Position numbers and translations under genes: made by a program. From an uncultured Candidatus Saccharibacteria bacterium (lineage in GTDB: Bacteria; Patescibacteriota; Minisyncoccia; UBA10092), in the NCBI GenBank assembly GCA_964495505.1, contig CAZBVM010000001.1, forward strand, positions 3,783 to 61,620: a DNA stretch of 57,838 bases. Reading direction: 5' to 3'. Below, piece after piece: positions 4,076 through 53,637 of this stretch; within the stretch, counting starts at the first letter, position 1, and each line of letters begins with the position of its first letter. The notes below the pieces were generated by a model. It saw nothing but the letters and a program-made list of their open reading frames with translations. It did not search any database and was not told the DNA's origin.

Positions 4076-4750
4076 ATGGACAGCAATAAAAATAAAAATA
4101 AAAAAATTTGGCTGTCGCATTCGGGGATTGAAGGAATGTATCGTTGCCCGCGCTGTTTTTGGCTGCAATATAATAAAGGATTACGCCAGCCGGAAGGGAT
4201 TGTTTCGCGTTTGGCGAACCGATTTGACGTTATTTTAAAAAGATATTTTGATTTATACCGACAAACCGGCGAGCTGCCGCCAATGATTGAGGGAAAAGTT
4301 GAAGGAAAATTGGAAAATCCTTTCCAAGAAAAATATTTTTGGGATTACGGTGAAAAATATGGCCTAACCGGGCGGCTTGACGATTGTTTAATTCGCGAAG
4401 ATGACACTTATACGCCGGTAGATCACAAAACCGCCAGTTCCGATCCTCGTGAAAAAGATATTTTAGAGGCATATCAGCACCAGTTGAATTTTTATGCGTT
4501 TCTTCTTGAAAAAAATGGCAAAAAAACTTCGGGCTTCGGCCACTTGATTTATTATTATCCGGAACATGGAGAAGAGCTTCATAAAGGAGTGCCGATCCAT
4601 GTTCACATTCAAACTTTAAAGACGAATCCAAAACAGGCGGAACAAGAGTTTTTAAAAGCCATAAAAATTTTAGAAGAGAAAATACCAAAGCCATCTTCCG
4701 ATTGTTCTTTTTGCTTCTGGCATGAGCAGTTGAAGGAATTAAAGTTATGA
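4076..4750 (+). CDS. PD-(D/E)XK nuclease, Cas4/RecB-like, with CxxC...CxxC cysteines
   Basis: It has GRLDD...VDHKT (D...DxK), a QHQLNFY QxxxY motif, N-terminal CPRC and C-terminal CSFC. Confidence 0.7.
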   Translation: MDSNKNKNKKIWLSHSGIEGMYRCPRCFWLQYNKGLRQPEGIVSRLANRFDVILKRYFDLYRQTGELPPMIEGKVEGKLENPFQEKYFWDYGEKYGLTGRLDDCLIREDDTYTPVDHKTASSDPREKDILEAYQHQLNFYAFLLEKNGKKTSGFGHLIYYYPEHGEELHKGVPIHVHIQTLKTNPKQAEQEFLKAIKILEEKIPKPSSDCSFCFWHEQLKELKL

Positions 4751-10649: not shown

Positions 10650-12302
10650 ATGACTAATAACGATATAACATTTTTTGCTGAAACGACTTTTAGAAACGAA
10701 AGGAAAAAATTCGGCATTAAGACCGACGATCGCCGCCGCCATATGTATATTATAGGGCAAACTGGCACCGGAAAGACCACACTGCAAATGAATATGATGA
10801 TTTCCGATATTTTGGCGGGCCGCGGCATGGGGTTTGTTGATCCTCACGGCGAAATGGCCGAAAGATTGCTTCATTATATCCCTAAGGAACGCATTAAAGA
10901 TGTTATTTATTTTTATCCGGCTGATTTAGAATATCCGATTGCTTTTAACGCCATAGAAAGCATAGACGCAAAAGCGCGCCACCTGATTGCTTCCGGCCTT
11001 ATGGGGGTCTTTAAAAAAATCTGGCCCGATGTTTGGAGCGCTCGGATGGAATATATTTTAAACAACACTATTCTGGCGCTTCTTGAAGTTCCCGGTTCCA
11101 CATTGCTTGGTGTTAACCGGATGTTTTCTGACAAGGCGTTTAGAAAAAACATCGTCAGCCAACTTCAGGATCCGGTTATTAAAGCGTTTTGGACGCAGGA
11201 ATACGCTGCTTATCAGCAAAAATACGAACAGGAAGCGACGGCGGCAATTCAAAATAAAATCGGCCAATTCAGTTCGGCCACGATTATAAGAAACATTATC
11301 GGTCAGCCGACTTCTTCATTTAATTTCAGGGCTGCAATGGACGAAGGAAAAATCGTAATAATGAACTTAAGCAAGGGGCGGCTTGGAGAAGACAACACCA
11401 AACTTTTGGGCGGTATGCTTATTACCAAAATTCAACTTGCTGCCATGAGCCGGGTTGACATACAGGAAGAGGACCGCAAAGATTTTTATCTTTATGTAGA
11501 CGAATTTCAGAATTTTGTAACCGACAGTTTTGCCGACATTTTGTCGGAAGCCAGAAAATTCCGCCTTGACCTTACTATCGCCAATCAATATATCGGCCAA
11601 TTAGTTCATGACCAGAATGTAAAGGTGAAAGACGCGATTTTTGGCAATGTCGGGACGTTTGTCGCTTTTAGGGCCGGCGGCGAAGATGTTGAATTTTTGG
11701 AAGAAAAACAATTCAGTCCCAATATAACGGCTCAAGACCTGCTCAATCTGCCGAATTACAATATCTATCTACGCTTGCTAATTGATGGCGTTCCTTCAAG
11801 GCCTTTTTCGGCGATCACTTTGCCGCCGTATCCAAAGCCGGAAATTTCTTATGCCGATGAAATTATAGAGCACTCCAGAAAAACTTACGGCACGTTAAAA
11901 TCCGATGTAGAAAAAGCCATAGCCGCGGCTGCGGGTGTTGAACTTGCCGCGGCGCCATCAGATATCGGCGAGGTTAAAGTTTCTGCCCCGCAAAGAATGC
12001 CCAGAACGGACACGGATAGTTACGGCACTTCCTATGCCGCTGTTTGCGTAAGTTGCGGAAAAAATACCAAAGTTCCGTTTAAACCCGATCCAAACCGGCC
12101 GGTTTACTGCAAGGATTGTTTTGCGAAAAATCCTGCCCGCCAGCGGCCTAAGCCGCAGGCGATGGCAGGCGGGCGTCCCGCAAGGCCAGTACATTTGTCA
12201 CAGTTGAAGCCACGACTCCAAAAACCACCAGCGCCAAGGCAACGCAAAACCGTTGACACCGAAGGCCTCAAAAAAATTTTGGAAGAGACAATGGAAAAGT
12301 AA
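10650..12302 (+). CDS. TraD/VirD4-like (type IV coupling protein / FtsK-HerA superfamily) P-loop ATPase with C-terminal zinc ribbon and Pro/Arg-rich tail
   Basis: Walker A YIIGQTGTGKT, Walker B LYVDEFQNF, ANQYIGQL, and C-terminal CVSCGK..x17..CKDC. Confidence 0.75.
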   Translation: MTNNDITFFAETTFRNERKKFGIKTDDRRRHMYIIGQTGTGKTTLQMNMMISDILAGRGMGFVDPHGEMAERLLHYIPKERIKDVIYFYPADLEYPIAFNAIESIDAKARHLIASGLMGVFKKIWPDVWSARMEYILNNTILALLEVPGSTLLGVNRMFSDKAFRKNIVSQLQDPVIKAFWTQEYAAYQQKYEQEATAAIQNKIGQFSSATIIRNIIGQPTSSFNFRAAMDEGKIVIMNLSKGRLGEDNTKLLGGMLITKIQLAAMSRVDIQEEDRKDFYLYVDEFQNFVTDSFADILSEARKFRLDLTIANQYIGQLVHDQNVKVKDAIFGNVGTFVAFRAGGEDVEFLEEKQFSPNITAQDLLNLPNYNIYLRLLIDGVPSRPFSAITLPPYPKPEISYADEIIEHSRKTYGTLKSDVEKAIAAAAGVELAAAPSDIGEVKVSAPQRMPRTDTDSYGTSYAAVCVSCGKNTKVPFKPDPNRPVYCKDCFAKNPARQRPKPQAMAGGRPARPVHLSQLKPRLQKPPAPRQRKTVDTEGLKKILEETMEK

Positions 12303-14023: not shown

Positions 14024-14596
14024 TTATTCTCCCTTCTCAACTCGCTCCACATATTCCCCAGTTTGGGTGTTGACGCGGATTATGTCTCCTTCGCTAACAA
14101 ACAAAGGCGCGACTATTTGAGCACTGGTTTCTATTGTAATAGTTTTAGTTCCGCCTTGGGCGGTGTTGCCGCGAGTGGCGGGGGGAGCTTCAACAACTTT
14201 AAAATCCATTTTTATCGGCAGGGTGATATTCAAAATTTCGCCGTTAAACTTTAGTGCTTCAACAACAGTGTTTGTTTTTAAAAAATTAATCGCGTTTCCG
14301 ATTTGTTCCTGCGAAAGTTTAAAGCGATTTGATTGGTTATTTTCTTCGGCGAACCAATATTCGCCGCGGTGGTTATATAAATATTTCACTTTCCTTTTTT
14401 CAATATCTGCTTCTTCAAAAGTGTCAGACGGCTTAAAATTCCGCGCCAAAACTTGGCCGGTTTTTAAGTTTTTTAACTTCGTCTGAATACTAGAACCGCC
14501 GCGGCCAATATGAAGATGGCGCGCCTCAAGAACTTCGTAAGGCGTGTTTTCATAGACGATACAGATTCCGTTTTGCAAATCGTTTATTGATAACAT
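14024..14596 (-). CDS. efp: Translation elongation factor P
   Basis: 190 aa. NDLQNG..I.....PYEV......H...GRGGSSIQTKLKNLKTGQ is a typical EF-P N-terminus. Confidence 0.95.
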   Translation of the reverse strand: MLSINDLQNGICIVYENTPYEVLEARHLHIGRGGSSIQTKLKNLKTGQVLARNFKPSDTFEEADIEKRKVKYLYNHRGEYWFAEENNQSNRFKLSQEQIGNAINFLKTNTVVEALKFNGEILNITLPIKMDFKVVEAPPATRGNTAQGGTKTITIETSAQIVAPLFVSEGDIIRVNTQTGEYVERVEKGE

Positions 14597-14658
14597 TATT
14601 CAAATATGTTATCCTTTTTTTATCTTTTTTGCCAAGTTCCTTAAAAAGGAGGAAAAAA

Positions 14659-17055
14659 ATGAGTCGAGCCAAAGTTTATATCGCTCCGATACCAGAGGGT
14701 CTTGTTTCTCCCACTTTCACCGAAGACGCGCTCAAGCTTATTAACGAGCGTTATTTGCGTCGCGATAAGGATGGCCAGATTGTTGAAACTGTTGAAGGAA
14801 TGTGCTGGCGGGTCGCTTATCATATAGCTTCTGCCGATAAAAAACATGGCAAGTCCGATGATGAAGTTATTGAGCTGGCAAAAGAATTTTACGAGGCTTT
14901 AGCGGAAAGAAAATTTTTCCCTAACGCTCCGACGATTTATAACGCCGGCACTGGTAACGGGCTACAGTTTTCCGCGTGTTTTGTACTTCCGATTGAGGAC
15001 TCTATGGATGGGATTTATGATGCCATAAAATGGCAGGCGGTAATCCATAAATCCGGAGGCGGAACCGGTTTTTCGTTTTCGTCTCTTCGGCCAAAAGACG
15101 CTTTGGTTCGGTCAACCCGGGGGAAGTCGTCCGGCCCCGTTTCATTTCTTAAGGTATTCAACACCTCAACAGAATTCGTTAAGCAGGGCGGCATGCGCCG
15201 CGGCGCCAATATGGCGATTATGAGCGTCCATCATCCCGATATTATGGAATTTATTCAGTGCAAGGGAATGTTGACGGATAAAAACCGGACAATTTACGAG
15301 CGCGTAAAGCCGTTTATTTACAGCAAGCGCGCGCTTGATCTTTTGCGAATTTCGCTTCTTGAAACTCAAATTGCCAACTTCAATATTTCCGTAGCGGCAA
15401 CTGACGCTTTCATGGAAGCGGTTAGAAATGATTCCGAATATGACCTAATTGACCCGCAAAACGGCGAAACTGTTTCGCGGCTCAAGGCCAAAATGGTGTT
15501 TGACGCAATCGTTAAGATGGCGTGGGAAACCGGAGACCCCGGCCTTTGGTTTATTGATAAAACCAACAGGTGGCGGGCAAATCCGATTCCATCACTTAAG
15601 ACAATTAACACGACCAATCCCTGCGGGGAACAACCGCTTTTTGATTTTGATGTTTGTAATCTTGGTTCCATTAATCTTTCTAAATTTCTTCTCAAAGAGG
15701 GTGATAAATACAAAATTGATTTTAAGGAATTGGAAAAGGCCACGCGGTTAGCCGTCCACTTTTTGGACAATGTTATTGAGCTTAATCCTTATCCGCTTCC
15801 TCAAATTATGGATTTGTCTCATAAAATCCGGCGAATTGGACTTGGGATTATGGGTTGGGCCGATATGCTGACCTATCTTGATACTCCCTACGCGTCAAAC
15901 GATGCCGTTAAACTGGCGGAACAGGTTTCAAAGTTTATCAACACTGTCGGTCATGACGAGTCGCAAAAACTTGCCGTGGAGCGCGGGCCGTTCCCGCTCT
16001 GGGAGCAAAGCATTTATAAGGATGACAAGCCGATAAGAAACTGTACCGTTACAACTATCGCCCCGACCGGCGAAATCAGAATTTTAGCCGGTTGTTCCGG
16101 AGGCATTGAACCTTTTTATGGCCTTACGGAAATTCATAAGTTTGAAAGTCGGGTTTTACATCGTATCCAGCCCGGGTTTGAAAGATTTCTTGAAGTCGCC
16201 AAAAAGCGCGGATTTTATTCCGAAAAGCTTGAAGAGGAAGTCAAGAGCCGGGGCCGCATTGATGATTTGGACGGTATTCCCGATGATATCAGAAAAATTT
16301 TTGTTACTACCCACGAGATAAAGCCCGAGTGGCATGTCAAAATTCAGTCTGCTTTTCAAAAGAACACTGATAATGGAGTAAGTAAAACAATCAATCTGCC
16401 TAATTCAGCCACGCTAGCCGATGTGGAAAGAGTTTATTGGCTTGCATATGAAACCAGCTGCCTCGGAATCACAGTTTTTCGAGACGGCTGCAAGGGCGGA
16501 GTGCTTTCGGTCGGGATAGATGATAATCAAAAAGGCAAGCTGACTTACCGCGATTTTATCCGTTCAAGGCCAAAACCGGCCCATGGTATTACCACGCGGG
16601 TGGAAACGCCCGATGGCGCCGCTTTTATCACTATCAATTATGATATTGAAATCGGACCGGTTGAACCGTTTGAGATTTTCATTAATGTCGCTAAAGCGGG
16701 AACCGATGCCGCGGCCGATGCCGAGGCCATTGGACGACTCGCTTCGGCCCACTTGCGGATTGAATCGCCGAAAACGCCGATTGAACGTTTAACACAGCTC
16801 AGAGATCAGCTTAGGAGTATTGGCGGAAGCCGAGTTTCCGGCTTCGGAAAAGAAAAAGTCACCTCTTTGGCCGACGGTGTCAGTAAGGCTATTGATTTTT
16901 ATCTCAAGTACTTTGATTTCATTGACGATGAAGATATTAAAGAAAAAAATGTTGCGATTTTTCGCGGCAATCGGTGTCCAAAATGTCAGCAAGGAACATT
17001 GATTTATGAAGAGGGCTGTAGCCGCTGCAATAATTGCGATTACAACGTTTGTTAG
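14659..17055 (+). CDS. nrdJ: Adenosylcobalamin-dependent (class II) ribonucleotide reductase
   Basis: TNPCGEQPL active-site loop, FSACFVLP, and C-terminal CPKC...CSRCNNC. I chose the start at ATG 14659, 6-8 nt after AAAGGAGG. The track start at 14587 overlaps efp. Confidence 0.9.
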   Translation: MSRAKVYIAPIPEGLVSPTFTEDALKLINERYLRRDKDGQIVETVEGMCWRVAYHIASADKKHGKSDDEVIELAKEFYEALAERKFFPNAPTIYNAGTGNGLQFSACFVLPIEDSMDGIYDAIKWQAVIHKSGGGTGFSFSSLRPKDALVRSTRGKSSGPVSFLKVFNTSTEFVKQGGMRRGANMAIMSVHHPDIMEFIQCKGMLTDKNRTIYERVKPFIYSKRALDLLRISLLETQIANFNISVAATDAFMEAVRNDSEYDLIDPQNGETVSRLKAKMVFDAIVKMAWETGDPGLWFIDKTNRWRANPIPSLKTINTTNPCGEQPLFDFDVCNLGSINLSKFLLKEGDKYKIDFKELEKATRLAVHFLDNVIELNPYPLPQIMDLSHKIRRIGLGIMGWADMLTYLDTPYASNDAVKLAEQVSKFINTVGHDESQKLAVERGPFPLWEQSIYKDDKPIRNCTVTTIAPTGEIRILAGCSGGIEPFYGLTEIHKFESRVLHRIQPGFERFLEVAKKRGFYSEKLEEEVKSRGRIDDLDGIPDDIRKIFVTTHEIKPEWHVKIQSAFQKNTDNGVSKTINLPNSATLADVERVYWLAYETSCLGITVFRDGCKGGVLSVGIDDNQKGKLTYRDFIRSRPKPAHGITTRVETPDGAAFITINYDIEIGPVEPFEIFINVAKAGTDAAADAEAIGRLASAHLRIESPKTPIERLTQLRDQLRSIGGSRVSGFGKEKVTSLADGVSKAIDFYLKYFDFIDDEDIKEKNVAIFRGNRCPKCQQGTLIYEEGCSRCNNCDYNVC

Positions 17056-17129: not shown

Positions 17130-18263
17130 ATGTCAAGACAACAGAAGAAAATTTTTGTAGCAATGAGTGGCGGCGTTGATTCCTCAGTCGCCGCTTTATT
17201 GTTGAAGCAAAAAGGATACGATGTTACCGGTGTTTATATGAAAGGATGGTCTTTAACAGACTGCGCCGAGGAAGACGTGATTGACGCGAGGCGCGTTGCC
17301 GGCGTTTTAGATGTTCCATTTTATGTTTTTGATTTTGAAAACGAATTTAAAAAAACCGTGGTTGATTATATGGTTGGCGAATACGCTGCCGGCCGGACGC
17401 CCAACCCAGATGTAATGTGCAACCGGGAAATTAAATTTGGTTTATTTCTTAAAAAAACGCTTAAACTTGGCGCTGACTATATCGCCACCGGACATTATGT
17501 TAACTTGGAAACGGAGTTTCCAAGTGGAAACTCCGTTTCCAAGTTGCTGCCGGCGAAAGATAGCAGTAAAGACCAGAGTTATTTTTTATGGACTCTAACG
17601 CAAGAACAACTTAAACATTGTTTGTTTCCAATAGGCGATTATACAAAGCCGCAAGTGCGGGCTATAGCTAAAAAATATAAATTACCGACGGCGGAAAAAC
17701 CTGATTCGCAGGGCGTTTGTTTTGTCGGCGAAATTAATGTTGCCGAATTTTTAAAGGAAAAACTCGGAAAAAATCCGGGACCGATAAAAACACTTAATGG
17801 TAAAACTATAGGAACTCACGACGGAGCGACTTTTTACACCATCGGCCAGAGAAGGGGAATCGGCATCAAAGGCAGTTTGCCGGGCGAACGAGGGAAAATT
17901 TATTATGTCGCGGCAAAAGATTTAAAAACCAATACCATCCTTGTAGCCGAAGGCAAAGACGAAAATTTATTCTCAGATAATTTAACGGTAAAAAACATCA
18001 ACTGGATTTCTGGAAGACAACCAAAATTGCCGTTAAATTGTTTTGCGCGCATCCGCTATCGCCAGCCGCTGCAACAAGCACGGCTTGTTGAATTTCCAAT
18101 TTCCAATTTCCAATTTCCAAAAAAATCTAAAACATCAAATTCGAATTTAAAAACTTTCAAAGTAATTTTTGATACTCCACAGCGTGCCATAACTCCCGGC
18201 CAAAGTGCGGTTTTCTATACAAAAAACGACACCATGCTCGGCGGCGGGGTTATTGACAGATAA
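17130..18263 (+). CDS. mnmA: tRNA 2-thiouridine(34) synthase MnmA
   Basis: PP-loop VAMSGGVDSSVAA, ATGHY, KDQSYFL, and C-terminal PGQSAVFY...LGGG. Confidence 0.93.
   Translation: MSRQQKKIFVAMSGGVDSSVAALLLKQKGYDVTGVYMKGWSLTDCAEEDVIDARRVAGVLDVPFYVFDFENEFKKTVVDYMVGEYAAGRTPNPDVMCNREIKFGLFLKKTLKLGADYIATGHYVNLETEFPSGNSVSKLLPAKDSSKDQSYFLWTLTQEQLKHCLFPIGDYTKPQVRAIAKKYKLPTAEKPDSQGVCFVGEINVAEFLKEKLGKNPGPIKTLNGKTIGTHDGATFYTIGQRRGIGIKGSLPGERGKIYYVAAKDLKTNTILVAEGKDENLFSDNLTVKNINWISGRQPKLPLNCFARIRYRQPLQQARLVEFPISNFQFPKKSKTSNSNLKTFKVIFDTPQRAITPGQSAVFYTKNDTMLGGGVIDR
17504..17543. repeat. Perfect 19-bp-arm palindrome inside the mnmA coding region
   Basis: cttggaaacggagtttcca-ag-tggaaactccgtttccaag. Encodes ...LETEFPSGNSVSKL... 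Confidence 0.95.
18091..18120 (+). repeat. (ATTTCCA)x4 tandem heptamer inside mnmA
   Basis: aatttccaatttccaatttccaatttccaa encodes EFPISNFQFP. Confidence 0.95.
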
Positions 18264-18329
18264 TTTATTTCCTGTTACTATTTAGATATAGATTAACATC
18301 GCTCTTTAAATTTAAAAAAGGGGAAGCAC

Positions 18330-18857
18330 GTGGCCGAACAAATAACCGTTCCTCTTGTAGGTCAGGAAATATATATTCCTTCGGCTCTTTATATATCTCA
18401 TGGAAGAGACGATATAATGGGTGGTCGCGTAGTTGTTACTAAAGTTATCCAGGAAAAACATGGCGATAGAATCGTGCACAGCATTCAAGTAACGGGATTT
18501 CCAAATATAACTTATTATTGGGAAAATGGTCTTGCACAACAGCAAGAAGATTTGCGAGAACAATTTGGCGATCAGTTGGCTCATCCCGACCCTGATAAAA
18601 GAGAAGAGTTTAATTCCCATTCAGTTATTACGCGCGATGTTATCCGGCGTTGGCTTACAGAGGGGAAAGAAAGAGGCGCCACACATGTTATTGTGGTTTC
18701 TGATACCTTTTATTATACTTACTGTCCGACTTATGTGATGCCCGGTGAAGACCCACGACAAAAAGCCAAAGAAGTTGGCTCTGTAAAAGAAGTTTACTCG
18801 CTATCGCGCGATATTGAATCACAACTCGCAGAAAATCGAGCATTTCATTACGATTGA
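18330..18857 (+). CDS. Hypothetical protein (orphan, 175 aa)
   Basis: GTG start after AAGGGGA, and its own terminator. No recognised domain. Confidence 0.5.
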   Translation: MAEQITVPLVGQEIYIPSALYISHGRDDIMGGRVVVTKVIQEKHGDRIVHSIQVTGFPNITYYWENGLAQQQEDLREQFGDQLAHPDPDKREEFNSHSVITRDVIRRWLTEGKERGATHVIVVSDTFYYTYCPTYVMPGEDPRQKAKEVGSVKEVYSLSRDIESQLAENRAFHYD

Positions 18858-18881
18858 TTTTTTATTAGTTAATCATTTCGA

Positions 18882-18914
18882 CCACAGGATTCAATACAAG
18901 CCTGTGGTTTTTTT
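18882..18914 (+). terminator. Rho-independent terminator of the 175-aa ORF
   Basis: ccacagg-attcaatacaag-cctgtgg followed by ttttttt. Confidence 0.7.
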
Positions 18915-18930
18915 ATCTTTCAATTTTCAT

Positions 18931-18970
18931 TTTTCGGAAATCAGCAACGATCGTTCGGATATTACGAAAA
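18931..18970 (+). repeat. Conserved 40-nt box, copy 1
   Basis: ttttcggaaatcagcaacgatcgttcggatattacgaaaa. Copies are at 33999-34038 (inverted) and 53563-53602. The centre is the palindrome AACGATCGTT (CAACGATCGTTG in copies 2 and 3) and the ends are inverted (TTTTCG...CGAAAA). Confidence 0.9.
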
Positions 18971-18986
18971 TTAAAAATTAAAAATT

Positions 18987-19016
18987 ATAATAAATTAGCT
19001 ATAGCTAATTTATTAT
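18987..19016. repeat. Perfect 30-bp palindrome, copy 1
   Basis: ataataaattagctatagctaatttattat. It follows (AAAAATT)~3. Confidence 0.95.
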
Positions 19017-19019
19017 ATA

Positions 19020-19076
19020 AGCGCGGTTTTTTACACTAAAACCGGCGAAATGCTCGGCGGTGGAATTATTGAATAA
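19020..19076 (+). pseudogene. Orphaned, diverged duplicate of the mnmA 3' end
   Basis: It encodes SAVFYTKTGEMLGGGIIE*, against SAVFYTKNDTMLGGGVIDR* at 18204-18263. 13 of 18 residues are identical and 6 differences are synonymous. There is no upstream coding continuity. Confidence 0.7.
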
Positions 19077-19166
19077 GTTTAATTTTAATTTGACAGATAT
19101 TTTTGTTTATTGTAGCATACTAAATATTAATTTTTTTGGTCTTTTTATTTATAAAAGGAGGCACAA

Positions 19167-19481
19167 ATGTTCTACTGGCTGTTTGGTAAGCGCAATAGAG
19201 CCATTAGCGCATTAAAAACAGAATTAAAAAAAGAAGATTTTGGTGTAAAATATCCACCCGATGAATCTACAATAGAGTACAAAGTTGGGGCTGAAATTTG
19301 GGTGCCAATGCCTGAGAAAGCTACCGCTGAAGATCGTACTAATAATTTAAATAGAATTCGTGCAATAAATGAAAAAATTGCCATACTATTTGGTCTTGTT
19401 GCTGTAGGCAGAGGTCCGGTTCTGTTAGAAAATGCTCTTTATTTCGCTTGTTGCGGCTTTAGAAGAAAGCCGCTTACATAA
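19167..19481 (+). CDS. Hypothetical protein (orphan, 104 aa)
   Basis: ATG lies 6 nt after AAAGGAGG. It has its own terminator. Confidence 0.5.
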   Translation: MFYWLFGKRNRAISALKTELKKEDFGVKYPPDESTIEYKVGAEIWVPMPEKATAEDRTNNLNRIRAINEKIAILFGLVAVGRGPVLLENALYFACCGFRRKPLT

Positions 19482-19511
19482 CAAACTTTCGATTATACCG
19501 TCTGGGTTCAT

Positions 19512-19538
19512 CCACTGGGTTTACCCAGCGGTTTTTTT
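19512..19538 (+). terminator. Rho-independent terminator of the 104-aa ORF
   Basis: ccactggg-ttta-cccagcgg followed by ttttttt. Confidence 0.6.
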
Positions 19539-19636
19539 ATTTCAAATTAATATCCATGTCACATCATTTGTCCGATCGGACAAATAGTGTTACGCTTTGT
19601 TGATTTTTCTGTTATAAATCTGATAAAATTAGTCGC

Positions 19637-21406
19637 ATGACTTCTAAAGAAATAAGGGAAAAATTTTTAGAATTTTTTGAAAAGAGGGGACATAAAGTCG
19701 TTCCGGCTTCTTCGCTTGTGCCGGAGGGCGATCCGTCGGTGCTTTTAACGACCGCCGGAATGCAACAATTCAAGCCGTATTTTACCGGTGACAAAGATCC
19801 AATGACAGATTTTGGTTCGCGGAGGACAGTTTCAATACAAAAATCTTTTCGCACCTCCGATATTGATGAGGTGGGAGACGAGTCGCATCTTACGTTCTTT
19901 CAAATGTTAGGCCAGTTTTCCTTCGGCGATTATTTTAAAAAAGAAACTATTGAGTGGACTTTTGAATTGCTAACTAAAATTTTTAGAATTGCCGAAGAAC
20001 GAATATCGGTTTCGGTTTTTGAAGGGGATAAAAAAATTCCTAAAGACCAAGAATCGTATGACGCTTGGTTGCGATTTTTGCCATCAGATAGAATAAAACT
20101 TGGGACAAGAGAAGAAGGTAATGTTTGGGGTCCGGCCGGGCCGGAAGGCCCATGTGGTGCCTCAAATGAGGTTTACGTTGATAATCTTGAAGTGGCGACG
20201 CTCGTGTTTATGGAATATTATTGCAAAAGCGATGGAAAAATTTCTCCATTGCCCAAAAAGGGAGTTGATGTCGGTTGGGGATTTGAGCGGCTTACTAAAG
20301 TAGTCCAAAACACGCCAACAATTTTTGAAACCGATTTATTTGAACCCCTCATTCAGGCAATCCCTCATAAAGATATAGAAAATGAAGCGCGTTCAGTTAG
20401 AATCATTGCCGATCATATAAGAGCCGCTAATTTTCTTATTGCCGATGGAGTTTTACCGTCTAATATGGCCCAAGGTTATATTTTGCGCCGACTTTTGCGT
20501 CGCGCCATTCGCCATGGCCTTATTTTAAATCTTGATAAAAACTTTTTAATTCCTTTATCGCAAAAAGTTATAGAAATATATAAAGAATTTTATCCTGAAT
20601 TATCTATTAAAAATAATGATATTCTAACAGTTATAGAAAAAGAAGAAGAAAAATTTAGGAAAACTCTCAAAAACGGATTAAGAGAGCTCGAAAAAATACT
20701 GAAAACAAGAACTGATAAAATAATTTCAGGGAACGACGCTTTTTATCTTTACGAGAGCTATGGCTTTCCAATGGAGCTGACGCGGGAATTGGCAACAGAA
20801 AGAGGATTTTCCATTGACGAATCTGGTTGGGAAACCGCGCTTAAAAAACACCAGGAAATTTCCCGTGCCGGAGCAGGAAAGAAGTTTGGCGGCCATGGAC
20901 TTATACAAAATACAAAATACAAAATACAAAATACAAACCAAAAAGATGTTGAAAAAATTACGCGACTCCATACCGCAACCCATCTTTTGCATCAGGCGCT
21001 TCATGATGTTTTGGGGAAAGAGGCGGATGTCAAACAAATGGGATCAGACATTACGCCGGAGCGCACCCGTTTTGATTTTACTTTTCAGAGAAAATTGACG
21101 GTGGAAGAAATTAAAAAAATTGAAAATATCGTCAATGAAAAAATAAAAATGAATTTGCCAGTTTACGCGCAAAAAATGCCTAAAGAAAGAGCTCTAAAAT
21201 TAGAGGCCAGGGCATTTTTTAAAGAAAAATATCCTGATGAGGTCAATGTTTATTCCGTTGGCGATTCAGATTTAAGCAAGGCCTACTCAAAAGAATTTTG
21301 CGATGGGCCGCATGTTAAGGGTACCGGCGAAATCGGCCGTTTTAAAATTATAAAAGAAGAATCTTCCAGCGACGGGGTAAGAAGAATTAGGGCTGTTGTG
21401 GAATGA
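19637..21406 (+). CDS. alaS: Alanine--tRNA ligase (short form, ends after editing domain)
   Basis: FLEFFEKRGHKVVPASSLVP, FFQMLGQFSFGDYFK, GPCGASNE, editing HTATHLLH and CDGPHV. Contains an (ATACAAA)5 insert. Confidence 0.93.
   Translation: MTSKEIREKFLEFFEKRGHKVVPASSLVPEGDPSVLLTTAGMQQFKPYFTGDKDPMTDFGSRRTVSIQKSFRTSDIDEVGDESHLTFFQMLGQFSFGDYFKKETIEWTFELLTKIFRIAEERISVSVFEGDKKIPKDQESYDAWLRFLPSDRIKLGTREEGNVWGPAGPEGPCGASNEVYVDNLEVATLVFMEYYCKSDGKISPLPKKGVDVGWGFERLTKVVQNTPTIFETDLFEPLIQAIPHKDIENEARSVRIIADHIRAANFLIADGVLPSNMAQGYILRRLLRRAIRHGLILNLDKNFLIPLSQKVIEIYKEFYPELSIKNNDILTVIEKEEEKFRKTLKNGLRELEKILKTRTDKIISGNDAFYLYESYGFPMELTRELATERGFSIDESGWETALKKHQEISRAGAGKKFGGHGLIQNTKYKIQNTNQKDVEKITRLHTATHLLHQALHDVLGKEADVKQMGSDITPERTRFDFTFQRKLTVEEIKKIENIVNEKIKMNLPVYAQKMPKERALKLEARAFFKEKYPDEVNVYSVGDSDLSKAYSKEFCDGPHVKGTGEIGRFKIIKEESSSDGVRRIRAVVE
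20903..20937 (+). repeat. (ATACAAA)x5 tandem heptamer inside alaS
   Basis: Encodes IQNTKYKIQNT. Same unit as 4963-4990. Confidence 0.95.
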
Positions 21407-33885: not shown

Positions 33886-33938
33886 CTTTCGTATATCGCA
33901 TGATCGTTTGTTATACGACATTAAGTTTAATCAACTGT

Positions 33939-33968
33939 ATAATAATTTAGCTATAGCTAAATTATTAT
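33939..33968. repeat. Perfect 30-bp palindrome, copy 2
   Basis: ataataatttagctatagctaaattattat. It differs from copy 1 at positions 8 and 23, which are mirror positions, so it remains a perfect palindrome. Confidence 0.95.
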
Positions 33969-33998
33969 AATTTTTAATTTTTAATTTTTAATTTTTAA

Positions 33999-34038
33999 TT
34001 TTCGTAATATCCCAACGATCGTTGCTGATTTCCGAAAG
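33999..34038 (-). repeat. Conserved 40-nt box, copy 2 (inverted orientation)
   Basis: The reverse complement reads (c)tttcggaaatcagcaacgatcgttgggatattacgaaaa. It is joined to the palindrome by (AAAAATT)~5. Confidence 0.9.
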
Positions 34039-34099
34039 ATGAAAAATAAATAAACCGCTGGGCGAACCATGCGGTAGTGTAATCAGAGGCGTTTAAATG

Positions 34100-34342
34100 T
34101 TATTTAAAAAGCCTTTCTTTACTCATATAAACGTAATTCGGAGGATATTCCGCAGGCGGGATGTCGTCAAGAGGCATGTCAGTTACAAAAGCCACAATGG
34201 CTTCAGACGCCAATTCTTCTAATTTTCTCTCTCTTTCGGAACATGCGAGACATTTTTCTCCGTGTTCGATATATTCATCTAGCTTACGATCAAGTTCCCG
34301 CATAGGTAAGCTATAAAAATTCTTATGTTCCTCGCACGTCAT
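34100..34342 (-). CDS. Hypothetical protein (orphan, 80 aa, CxxC-containing)
   Basis: ATG after GGAGGGG, with its own near-consensus promoter. No recognised domain. Confidence 0.5.
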   Translation of the reverse strand: MTCEEHKNFYSLPMRELDRKLDEYIEHGEKCLACSERERKLEELASEAIVAFVTDMPLDDIPPAEYPPNYVYMSKERLFK

Positions 34343-34380
34343 TTGGCCCCTCCATATTTATAGTCTAATTGTTTATTATA

Positions 34381-34409
34381 AGTATATAACAATTATTTAT
34401 CATTGTCAA
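34381..34409 (-). promoter_or_regulatory. Near-consensus sigma70 promoter (TTGACA-N17-TATACT) for the 80-aa ORF
   Basis: The minus strand reads ttgacaatgataaataattgttatatact. Confidence 0.55.
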
Positions 34410-34474
34410 TGTTTTCGGAGTGGCGAGATTTGTTGTAGAATATAAATACTTAATTTAAATAAACACAAAATTAT

Positions 34475-52916: not shown

Positions 52917-53501
52917 ATGCGCGTAATCATTATCGCGGCATTTGCGATTTTTATTATTATTCCTTCTGTGTTGTCTGCGATTGACGAAAAGCCACCGCTT
53001 ACTGTGAGTATTGTCGTGGATCCGCTTCTTTACGACCGCTTTAAGAGTCCGGAGGAGCTTGAGGTACACCTTCTCAACATCATCAGCCGCGCCTCGCTCA
53101 TCTTCAACGCAGATATCGGCAGACAACTGGTGCTTGACGTAATCGAGGTCGGTCTTCCGCCGAATGCGGGACTCTCAATTGACGACAAGAGCGCTTTTGC
53201 GTGGTTGAAGGAGAAAGTAAAGAGACATCCGTCCCGATTCTGGGTTTTCCTCATTGACCGTCCGCTTGCTTCATGCAACATTTCAGGCACCTGGAGCGGT
53301 TGCGGGATGATGAATAATTCCATCTCCATAGTAGTGTACAATTCTGATCTTGCCCTTACCCTTCGGAATCTTCTTCACGAGCTTGGCCACAATTGCGGGG
53401 CGGATCACAGCGAATCAAAAATTTCTATTATGTATCCATGGGGCGGGAACAACGTGACCTACAGTGACAAAGTGGTCATCATTCGGGATACATGCGAGTG
53501 A
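52917..53501 (+). CDS. Secreted metzincin-type zinc metalloprotease (GC-rich orphan)
   Basis: Signal peptide, HELGHNCGADH (HExxHxxGxxH), and the Met-turn-like SIMYPW. ATG follows AGGAGG. Confidence 0.8.
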   Translation: MRVIIIAAFAIFIIIPSVLSAIDEKPPLTVSIVVDPLLYDRFKSPEELEVHLLNIISRASLIFNADIGRQLVLDVIEVGLPPNAGLSIDDKSAFAWLKEKVKRHPSRFWVFLIDRPLASCNISGTWSGCGMMNNSISIVVYNSDLALTLRNLLHELGHNCGADHSESKISIMYPWGGNNVTYSDKVVIIRDTCE

Positions 53502-53562
53502 CAACAAGGCCCGAGGAACATATTTCACGGGTTTTTTATTTTTGCGACCTTTGATTGAATTC

Positions 53563-53602
53563 TTTTCGGAAATCAGCAACGATCGTTGGGATATTACGAA
53601 AA
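53563..53602 (+). repeat. Conserved 40-nt box, copy 3 (no microsatellite or palindrome after it)
   Basis: ttttcggaaatcagcaacgatcgttgggatattacgaaaa, starting 61 nt after the metzincin stop. Confidence 0.9.
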
Positions 53603-53637
53603 CTAAATATCAAATTAGTATATCAAATTTTATTTTA

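Follow-up and report, generated by a model that had tools for sequence, protein, structure and literature searches.

The stretch analysed here, referred to as the window, comprises 57,838 nucleotides (nt) of contig CAZBVM010000001.1 (assembly GCA_964495505.1). Our subject is the spacer between mnmA, the gene for a tRNA 2-thiouridine synthase, and alaS, in which the 3′ end of mnmA occurs twice, once as the end of the live gene and once as a displaced, non-coding copy, the two forming direct repeats 816 nt apart. The sequences suggest, with moderate confidence on our part, that the mnmA–alaS spacer is an insertion hot spot and that the second tail is a recombination scar of 3′-end displacement, in which homologous and illegitimate recombination were combined. 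The order in this part of the window is RNR (14587–17055), mnmA, orf175, a conserved box, AAAAATT repeats, a perfect palindrome, the second mnmA tail, orf104, an imperfect palindrome and alaS. Source names attached to mnmA homologues place the lineage in Candidatus Azambacteria (Parcubacteria). Related loci and contigs that we compared with the window are labeled with L-numbers.

The live mnmA (17130–18263, forward strand, 377 amino acids (aa), three Pfam domains) is intact. The model of its C-terminal Pfam domain was matched over all positions (1–77 of 77), its open reading frame (ORF) closes with the family-typical motif MLGGGVID, and the protein is 74–79% identical to its homologues in L001, L096 and L179. 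A preliminary description of this DNA had proposed that the gene owes a surrogate 3′ end to inserted DNA, and the completeness of the live gene agrees with this. By alignment, the first repeat copy (18203–18263, forward strand) is the live tail, of which 18204–18263 translates to SAVFYTKNDTMLGGGVIDR and a stop codon. The second copy (19019–19076, forward strand) was delimited by alignment and translation, and 19020–19076 translates to SAVFYTKTGEMLGGGIIE and a stop codon. The tails are identical at 13 of 18 residues and at 41 of 54 nt (13 differ, 76% identity), with six codons that differ only synonymously, and both contain an 11-nt core, ATGCTCGGCGG, at 18234–18244 and 19050–19060. In-frame stops immediately 5′ of the second tail break its coding continuity with the upstream sequence; the tail itself contains no indels and its frame is still open. 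Both the recurrence and the loss of upstream continuity had been described before, and both were confirmed.

Local alignment of mnmA against the 1.3 kb 3′ of the gene gave a score of 51, compared with 24.0 ± 2.5 and a maximum of 37 for 200 shuffles. When 159 mnmA loci were scanned for a downstream echo of the tail, the window had z = 17.9, and tblastn (E ≤ 1e-3) found no second mnmA tail in 80 genome loci. A wider survey of 3′-end echoes covered 146 genes (window and 10 related loci) and 12 tRNAs. mnmA was the sole gene with such an echo, in two genomes, and was joined by a single tRNA-Trp; echoes as a general property of cassette sites were rejected on this count. The shared core coincides with the most conserved codons of mnmA (MLGGG, ~120 homologues), and many homologues carry odd extensions past GGGII.

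The second tail resembles the live tail of a relative more closely than its own neighbor. It differs from the L001 live tail at 8 of 54 nt, and 7 of these differences are synonymous. L001 sides with the second tail at each of the five positions where the tails of the window differ non-synonymously, so that every amino-acid replacement falls on the branch of the live tail. Under random substitution the synonymous excess had a computed P = 8e-4 (6 of 7); a hand recount gave 7 of 8, or ~2e-4. At the four-fold sites of alaS, identity of the window to L001 is just 58%, and against this background eight mostly synonymous changes rule out neutral decay of the second tail since the two lineages split. 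The second tail was therefore still coding, within a functional mnmA, in the recent past, and either it or the live tail comes from another lineage. The two tails are xenologous, and a recent duplication in situ is not their origin.

Exchange between lineages is evident at mnmA in other comparisons, because L001 and L179 are 97–98% identical over ~200 nt of the gene and fall to 59–65% just downstream. Such homologous recombination inside mnmA is frequent; sliding identity along the gene against L001, L096 and L179 was mosaic in all pairs, and the 3′ third was hypervariable everywhere.

mnmA and alaS are neighbors in many Parcubacteria, with spacers from 15 nt to 2.4 kb. In L096 and L097, RNR and mnmA (87 and 79% identical to the window) are followed by alaS, which starts 15 nt past the mnmA stop, and short spacers of 15–20 nt also occur in L100, L011, L104 and L140. 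These are the empty-site alleles that the preliminary description had proposed to seek in relatives. An intermediate arrangement occurs in L001, in which mnmA is followed by 37 nt, the box, an A-tract, the same palindrome, ~50 nt and alaS; orf175, orf104 and a second tail are absent there (identity to the window: RNR 86%, mnmA 74%, alaS 86%).

A second instance of a duplicated tail was found in the L099-type genome (identity to the window: RNR ~87–90%, mnmA 74%). The order is mnmA, orf89, a terminator, the box, A-rich repeats, the palindrome with 1 mismatch, 37 nt, a 29-nt tail copy and rplF. The copy is identical to its own live tail at 27 of 29 positions (z = 15.8). orf89 is an unrelated small ORF, listed as 98 aa long when read from an earlier start codon. 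Downstream of the tail copy, rplF-rplR-rpsE-rplO-secY-adk-map takes the place of alaS. Across the 740-nt spacer the sequence is the same in eight independent contigs, each assembled from a different sample, so that this layout is not a chimera. In both echo genomes the live tail reads GGCGG-C-GG after the core and the dead copy reads GGCGG-T-GG. This distal half of the ribosomal spc operon (L179/L180, 6837–11152) directly follows the mnmA locus of the L099-type genome, and the copied mnmA tail supplies the −35 (TTGACT) of its promoter.

The tRNA echo lies in L093 (752–831), where the 3′ end of tRNA-Trp (19 nt) is repeated at 18 of 19 positions in a copy 42 nt downstream. Between the tRNA end and its copy lie 26 nt, a perfect, GC-rich palindrome of 16 nt (CCCCGCAGCTGCGGGG) and 1 nt, and the copy is followed by a cassette promoter. 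This palindrome is unrelated in sequence to that at 18986 of the window. In L092 a tRNA-end-like remnant, GAGCCCCTGC, precedes the same cassette, though a protein gene lies upstream there.

In L101 a reverse-oriented gene of 163 aa abuts mnmA, and the mnmA ORF enters the inserted DNA for 9 codons; no echo is present. Because of this run-through and of the odd extensions of many homologues, the end of the conserved gene is a recurrent breakpoint. In L098 (6156–6480, 3′ of mnmA) the tail forms a promoter-like sequence (TTGACT, 16 nt, TATAAT) that reads into a GC-rich, structured-looking stretch of ~300 nt ending in a terminator. With no ORF call and no Rfam match, this stretch could be an unannotated RNA.

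The sequence that precedes the second tail is repetitive. The preliminary description had placed a perfect palindrome of 30 bp 3 nt before the copy; the palindrome is indeed perfect, yet it is 32 nt long (18986–19017, forward strand; TATAATAAATTAGCTA and TAGCTAATTTATTATA; found by repeat search), and the similarity between the tails starts at 19019. Its core is unchanged in L001 and carries a single mismatch in L099. Another copy in the window (33938–33969) differs from it by two changes that are mirrored in both arms. Ahead of the palindrome lie AAAAATT repeats (18967–18985, forward strand, read from the sequence; 2–3 units, and 5 units in the copy at 33970–34000) and a conserved box of 41 nt (18932–18972, forward strand), an imperfect palindrome centered on AACGATCGTT and defined by three window copies. 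The other two are at 33997–34037 (reverse strand) and 53564–53604 (forward strand), and at a threshold of ≤ 4 mismatches in 35 the box was also found in L001, L092, L094/95, L098 (two copies) and the L099-type genome. As single-stranded DNA, box and palindrome form two predicted hairpins. Neither matched an Rfam family, and the box had no match among IMG/VR viral contigs.

Because they are present at the cargo-free mnmA site of L001 and at other loci of the window, the box and the palindrome are clade-wide intergenic repeats and not the private cargo of the 0.8-kb piece between the tails. The terminator, the AAAAATT repeats and the box that had been ascribed to that piece all exist, but box and palindrome are not its own parts. 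All three window copies of the box follow the terminator of a co-oriented small gene. At 33938–34410 (reverse strand) an 80-aa ORF (34342–34100; promoter TTGACA, 17 nt, TATACT; terminator) is followed by the box, five AAAAATT units and the 32-nt perfect palindrome. At 53464–53604 (forward strand) the box comes after a 194-aa metalloprotease-like ORF and stands alone. An 8-nt direct repeat, GTGAAATT, flanks the box and palindrome in L001; it may be a target duplication or may be due to chance. The hexamer CGATCG occurs 10 times in the window, with five occurrences in the 7.5% that is non-coding (18948, 19573, 26027, 34016 and 53580). These five are the centers of longer palindromes (AACGATCGTT three times, GTCCGATCGGAC and GCCGATCGGC), and similar ones occupy the same spacer types in L001 and L094. 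They may be a protein-binding or methylation motif.

The piece between the tails carries a single gene, orf175 (18330–18857, forward strand), which encodes a conserved protein of unknown function. Its predicted promoter (18253–18281, forward strand) consists of TTGACA, 17 nt and TACTAT with an upstream TG. The −35 element (18253–18258) is made by the last codons of mnmA, ATT GAC AGA TAA, and the live mnmA thereby reads into the promoter of the orf175 cassette. The longer motif TTGACAGATAATTT spans 18253–18266 at the end of the live gene, and TTGACAGATAwTTT also heads the orf104 cassette. An intrinsic terminator (CCACAGG, 12-nt loop, CCTGTGG, T7) lies at 18883–18915 (forward strand). It was read from the sequence by eye, since the terminator scan handles loops of ≤ 8 nt and therefore missed it.

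Far from being the orphan it was first taken for, orf175 has 20 homologues. Sixteen are full-length at 58–85% identity, and 48 columns are invariant among 17 aligned sequences. Its N-terminal ~90 aa alone have relatives of 33–41% identity on five IMG/VR contigs. The window protein itself (P0001) is present on 1 contig. An AlphaFold2 (AF2) model with a predicted local distance difference test (pLDDT) of 80 shows a β-barrel plus an α/β domain and had no match in PDB or BFVD. Pfam returned a sub-threshold hit to Nmad2 alone (E = 0.015), and nothing significant was found in PHROGs. orf175 is not a recognisable recombinase.

In 11 other orf175-type loci nucleotide homology to the window ends at the borders of the coding sequence (18336–18855) and the flanks are unrelated, which speaks against the earlier view of the 0.8 kb as a discrete cassette with defined ends. 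A search for the same ends at other loci yielded no second copy of the unit, and box and palindrome occur elsewhere without an echo. Homologues of orf175 lie either immediately behind tRNA genes or with TrmB on one side and an HD-domain gene on the other. One homologous cassette is 98.8% identical over 1051 nt between L086 (231–1280) and L087 (335–1385), behind different tRNA genes: tRNA-Thr and a 100-nt hairpin precede it on one contig, and it lies directly behind tRNA-Gly on the other. In L087 the common sequence begins inside the last 5 nt of the tRNA. In L088–L091 cassettes behind tRNA-Arg are separated by repeats that contain GGTTCTAAC.

Beyond the second tail lies the orf104 cassette (19090–19545, forward strand), delimited by homology to L092–L095 and composed of a promoter with 5′ untranslated region (UTR), orf104 (19167–19481) and a terminator (19515–19538). 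The promoter (TTGACA, 17 nt, TAGCAT) is conserved together with the 5′UTR, and the homology extends from 19088–19090 to 19522–19542 of the window. In L092–L095 the homologues occupy the SMC–FtsK spacer, adjoining tRNA-Trp, and there the same type of promoter module also heads neighboring small ORFs. No family match was found for orf104 in Pfam or PHROGs; the protein was found on two contigs. orf175 and orf104, homologues of which occur in other contexts, are separate, independent promoter-to-terminator cassettes.

We propose that two diverged versions of the locus were joined. The left block would have consisted of mnmA with the live tail, the orf175 cassette, the box, the A-tract repeats and the palindrome, and the right block of the second tail, the orf104 cassette and alaS. 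On one side, DNA of a related lineage would have recombined homologously within mnmA (or, in the mirror polarity, within alaS). At the opposite end, an illegitimate join may have formed at an AAG microhomology, 1–2 nt past the 32-nt palindrome, which probably fixed where the DNA ended, by being cleaved as a hairpin or cruciform or by stalling strand exchange. Both gene ends would have been retained, one as the working end of mnmA and the other 816 nt downstream, untranslated. We favor a structure-driven break or stall over a sequence-specific enzyme because the echo palindromes of the window and L093 are unrelated. The locus has two features required for 3′-end displacement, namely a conserved anchor next to a variable region that recombines between lineages and an orphaned downstream 3′ end that is xenologous to the live one. 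Which block arrived, what the palindrome did and whether a dedicated recombinase was needless are parts of this scheme that we infer.

Several observations weigh against displacement as the explanation. Homology-facilitated illegitimate recombination is orders of magnitude rarer than a clean double crossover (PMC5361080), and despite this rarity an echo is present at two of the three mnmA loci that bear box and palindrome. The AAG at the joint is common to TATAAG/CGCGG in the window, CCAAAG/CGCGG in mnmA and CACAAG/TG in L001 (slashes mark the joint), and is not significant, since the DNA is AT-rich and the match 3 nt long. The foreign block ends within 40 nt of the same palindrome in both genomes with an echo, which fits a defined cassette end too, and the C/T split between live and dead copies after the core is what a crossover inside a fixed core predicts. 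No single clean breakpoint could be defined within mnmA, all pairs being mosaic. The 3′ half of mnmA is nearer to L096 and the second tail and alaS are nearer to L001, a discordance that fits either polarity. The arrangement of the window is known from one assembly only, and the alleles retrieved from close relatives were those of L001, L096 and the L099 type.

Two further ideas were considered. A donor that carried orf104 behind mnmA may have brought the second tail; in four relatives, though, the orf104 homologues sit in the SMC–FtsK spacer and not beside mnmA. The flanks 3′ of the second tail in the window, L099 and L001 look alignable, as an ancestral mnmA flank would, but are short and AT-rich and were not relied on.

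The strongest competitor, which sharpens the reading of the preliminary description and which we consider possible but doubtful, is a circular, integrase-less cassette of 816 nt that entered the 3′ end of mnmA by Campbell-type, site-specific integration with a recombinase supplied in trans. The crossover would lie in or near ATGCTCGGCGG, and the circle would comprise mnmA-tail homology with a stop, orf175 between its promoter and terminator, and then box, A-tract and palindrome. With every later insertion the cassettes already present would move further downstream, and each would have a target-end copy of its own. Such a circle would account for an insert between direct repeats of the target end, for the restored mnmA and for the empty sites in relatives. 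It would equally account for the L099-type genome, where a 623-nt unit with other cargo has the same box–palindrome 3′ module and a repeat over the same core, and where the C/T site past the core separates live from dead copies as it does in the window. The box modules behind the terminators of co-oriented small ORFs (3/3 window copies), the tRNA-Trp end echo in front of the L093 cassette and the near-identical L086/L087 cassette behind different tRNA genes, with common sequence that in L087 begins inside the final 5 nt of the tRNA, point the same way.

Against the circle, the 0.8-kb piece carries no integrase, as already stated in the preliminary description, and no tyrosine or serine recombinase and no DDE enzyme were detected among the 30 window proteins scanned; orf175, which was modeled in addition, has no recombinase-like fold. 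The unit was never met as a unit elsewhere, with the flanks of the orf175 homologues unrelated, and box and palindrome occur without an echo at the L001 mnmA site and at two other window loci. The echoes are unequal in length (57 and 29 nt), the palindromes next to the window and L093 echoes do not resemble each other, the core is merely the most conserved part of mnmA (MLGGG), and mnmA stands alone with an echo among 146 genes.

A broader version of this idea seems unlikely to us, namely that Azambacteria harbor a family of integrase-less cassettes inserted at mnmA and tRNA 3′ ends by a hairpin-recognising recombinase acting in trans. The layout of such cassettes may be a sigma-70 promoter with 5′UTR, a small ORF, a terminator, the 41-nt CGATCG box, an A-tract and a perfect palindrome, and each insertion may regenerate the target end and move older cassettes downstream.

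Much less probable is an old local tandem duplication of the mnmA end that involved no foreign DNA and whose copies diverged before small genes were inserted later. Long palindromes promote template switching, the copies are direct repeats 816 nt apart, and the L099-type copies, 27/29 identical, look like a young duplication in situ. But the dead copy is nearer to the L001 live tail, with 8 differences of which 7 are synonymous, than to the live tail beside it, with 13; the amino-acid changes all lie on the live branch, opposite to the decay of a dead duplicate, and the dead copy has an open frame and no indels at 58% four-fold identity to L001. Least probable of all, and close to negligible, is a chance resemblance or a chimeric assembly of two strains: the arrangement is on one contig only and repeats in the region might mislead assemblers, but the alignment is far beyond shuffles, the join of palindrome and second tail has no shared k-mer able to cause a chimera, the orf104 protein is on two contigs, and the sister layout was assembled identically eight times from different samples.

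The closest parallel to 3′-end displacement is found at Rhs, contact-dependent inhibition (CDI) and type VI secretion system (T6SS) effector loci, where orphan 3′ ends have been attributed to homology-facilitated illegitimate recombination (PMC5361080, citing Jackson et al, 2009; de Vries & Wackernagel, 2002; Prudhomme et al, 2002). In both settings a conserved upstream part would serve as the anchor, the incoming DNA would bring a new 3′ end with downstream genes, the resident 3′ end and downstream gene would be shifted and kept as orphans, and repeated events would build arrays. Unlike those loci, mnmA is a housekeeping gene to which polymorphic-toxin logic does not apply, no more than 57 nt were displaced, the join lies beside a perfect palindrome, and the mechanism is here an inferred one.

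An insert flanked by direct repeats of the target end, next to a restored gene, is also left by elements that target the 3′ end of tRNA or protein genes and by the cis-mobilizable elements or CIMEs, which derive from them and have no integrase (PMC5704250; ICEberg 2.0, PMC6323972); tandem accretion is possible. An mnmA-adjacent hot spot is reported in Erysipelothrix (PMC12785378), with the integration site described merely as near mnmA. The present locus differs in several ways. The window yielded neither a cognate integrase nor a parent element, the 0.8-kb insert holds a single gene, and the repeats share 76% identity instead of being near-identical. Its "right arm", made up of box and palindrome, recurs across the genome, also in places with no echo. 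The locus thus resembles these elements in its repeats, which stand where attL and attR would, in its intact target and in the empty sites of relatives, and departs from them in that no integrase was found among the 30 window proteins and no movement as a unit was seen.

Integron cassettes are likewise small single-gene units with a palindromic end that are mobilised in trans and stacked in arrays. In contrast to them, the window has no IntI, attI or Pc, and each of its cassettes has its own promoter; integron cores (RYYYAAC/GTTRRRY) were absent from 18932–19017 on reading the sequence, and integron insertion does not duplicate 29–57 nt of a target gene. With CIMEs, integron cassettes and Xer-dependent modules known, a non-autonomous cassette mobilised in trans would not be as unusual as had been supposed, and homology-facilitated illegitimate recombination, which needs no recombinase of this kind, accounts for the observations no less well.

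Integration hot spots that are flanked by core genes and lack mobility genes were reportedly described by Oliveira et al. in 2017. The variable mnmA–alaS spacer, with unrelated small genes and no integrase, is of this kind; double-crossover turnover leaves no duplicated gene end, however, and the echo is an unusual extra here.

Other features of the region are an imperfect palindrome centered on CCGATCGG (19558–19593, forward strand, found by repeat search) and alaS (19637–21406) with its promoter (TTGATT, 18 nt, TAAAAT; the whole at 19600–21406, forward strand), which comparison with relatives indicates to be the ancestral neighbor of mnmA. Within mnmA, a 44-nt in-frame stretch (17502–17545) consists of two perfectly complementary 21-nt arms with a 2-nt gap and encodes part of NLETEFPSGNSVSKL; it is kept at the same position in L001 (84% identity, reverse-strand match), and the L099-type gene differs there. 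AATTTCCAATTTCC occurs twice at 18091–18118 as an in-frame tandem repeat (FPISNFQFP), and alaS contains an in-frame repeat at 20903–20937 (region NTKYKIQNTNQ) that cross-matches a repeat in the 3′ part of the L096 mnmA (L096 3554–3588). The tandem repeats are variable low-complexity inserts inside conserved housekeeping proteins. Elsewhere in the window, 4076–4750 and 10650–12302 encode a PD-(D/E)XK nuclease and a TrwB/TraG-like coupling ATPase with a zinc finger, and six proteins of 198–551 aa had no Pfam match.

The genomes of candidate-phyla bacteria are tiny and hold few mobile elements that can be recognised, and the gain of genes by these bacteria is poorly documented. The mnmA–alaS locus offers a dated, sequence-level example of a core-gene spacer that gains single-gene promoter-to-terminator cassettes from related lineages, with the displaced mnmA end as the record of one joining event. 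It also exposes strongly conserved intergenic elements of the clade: the box and the perfect palindromes, which lack an Rfam match, and a shared promoter with 5′UTR. We find these elements more intriguing than the displaced tail itself. We know of no integron-like or CIME-like cassette system with an unlinked integrase in this phylum, and the unlikely cassette-family reading, if true, would provide one that is new to it. If a dedicated recombinase acts at this locus, it would define a new cassette system; if none does, the locus would be a clean case of 3′-end displacement outside toxin loci.

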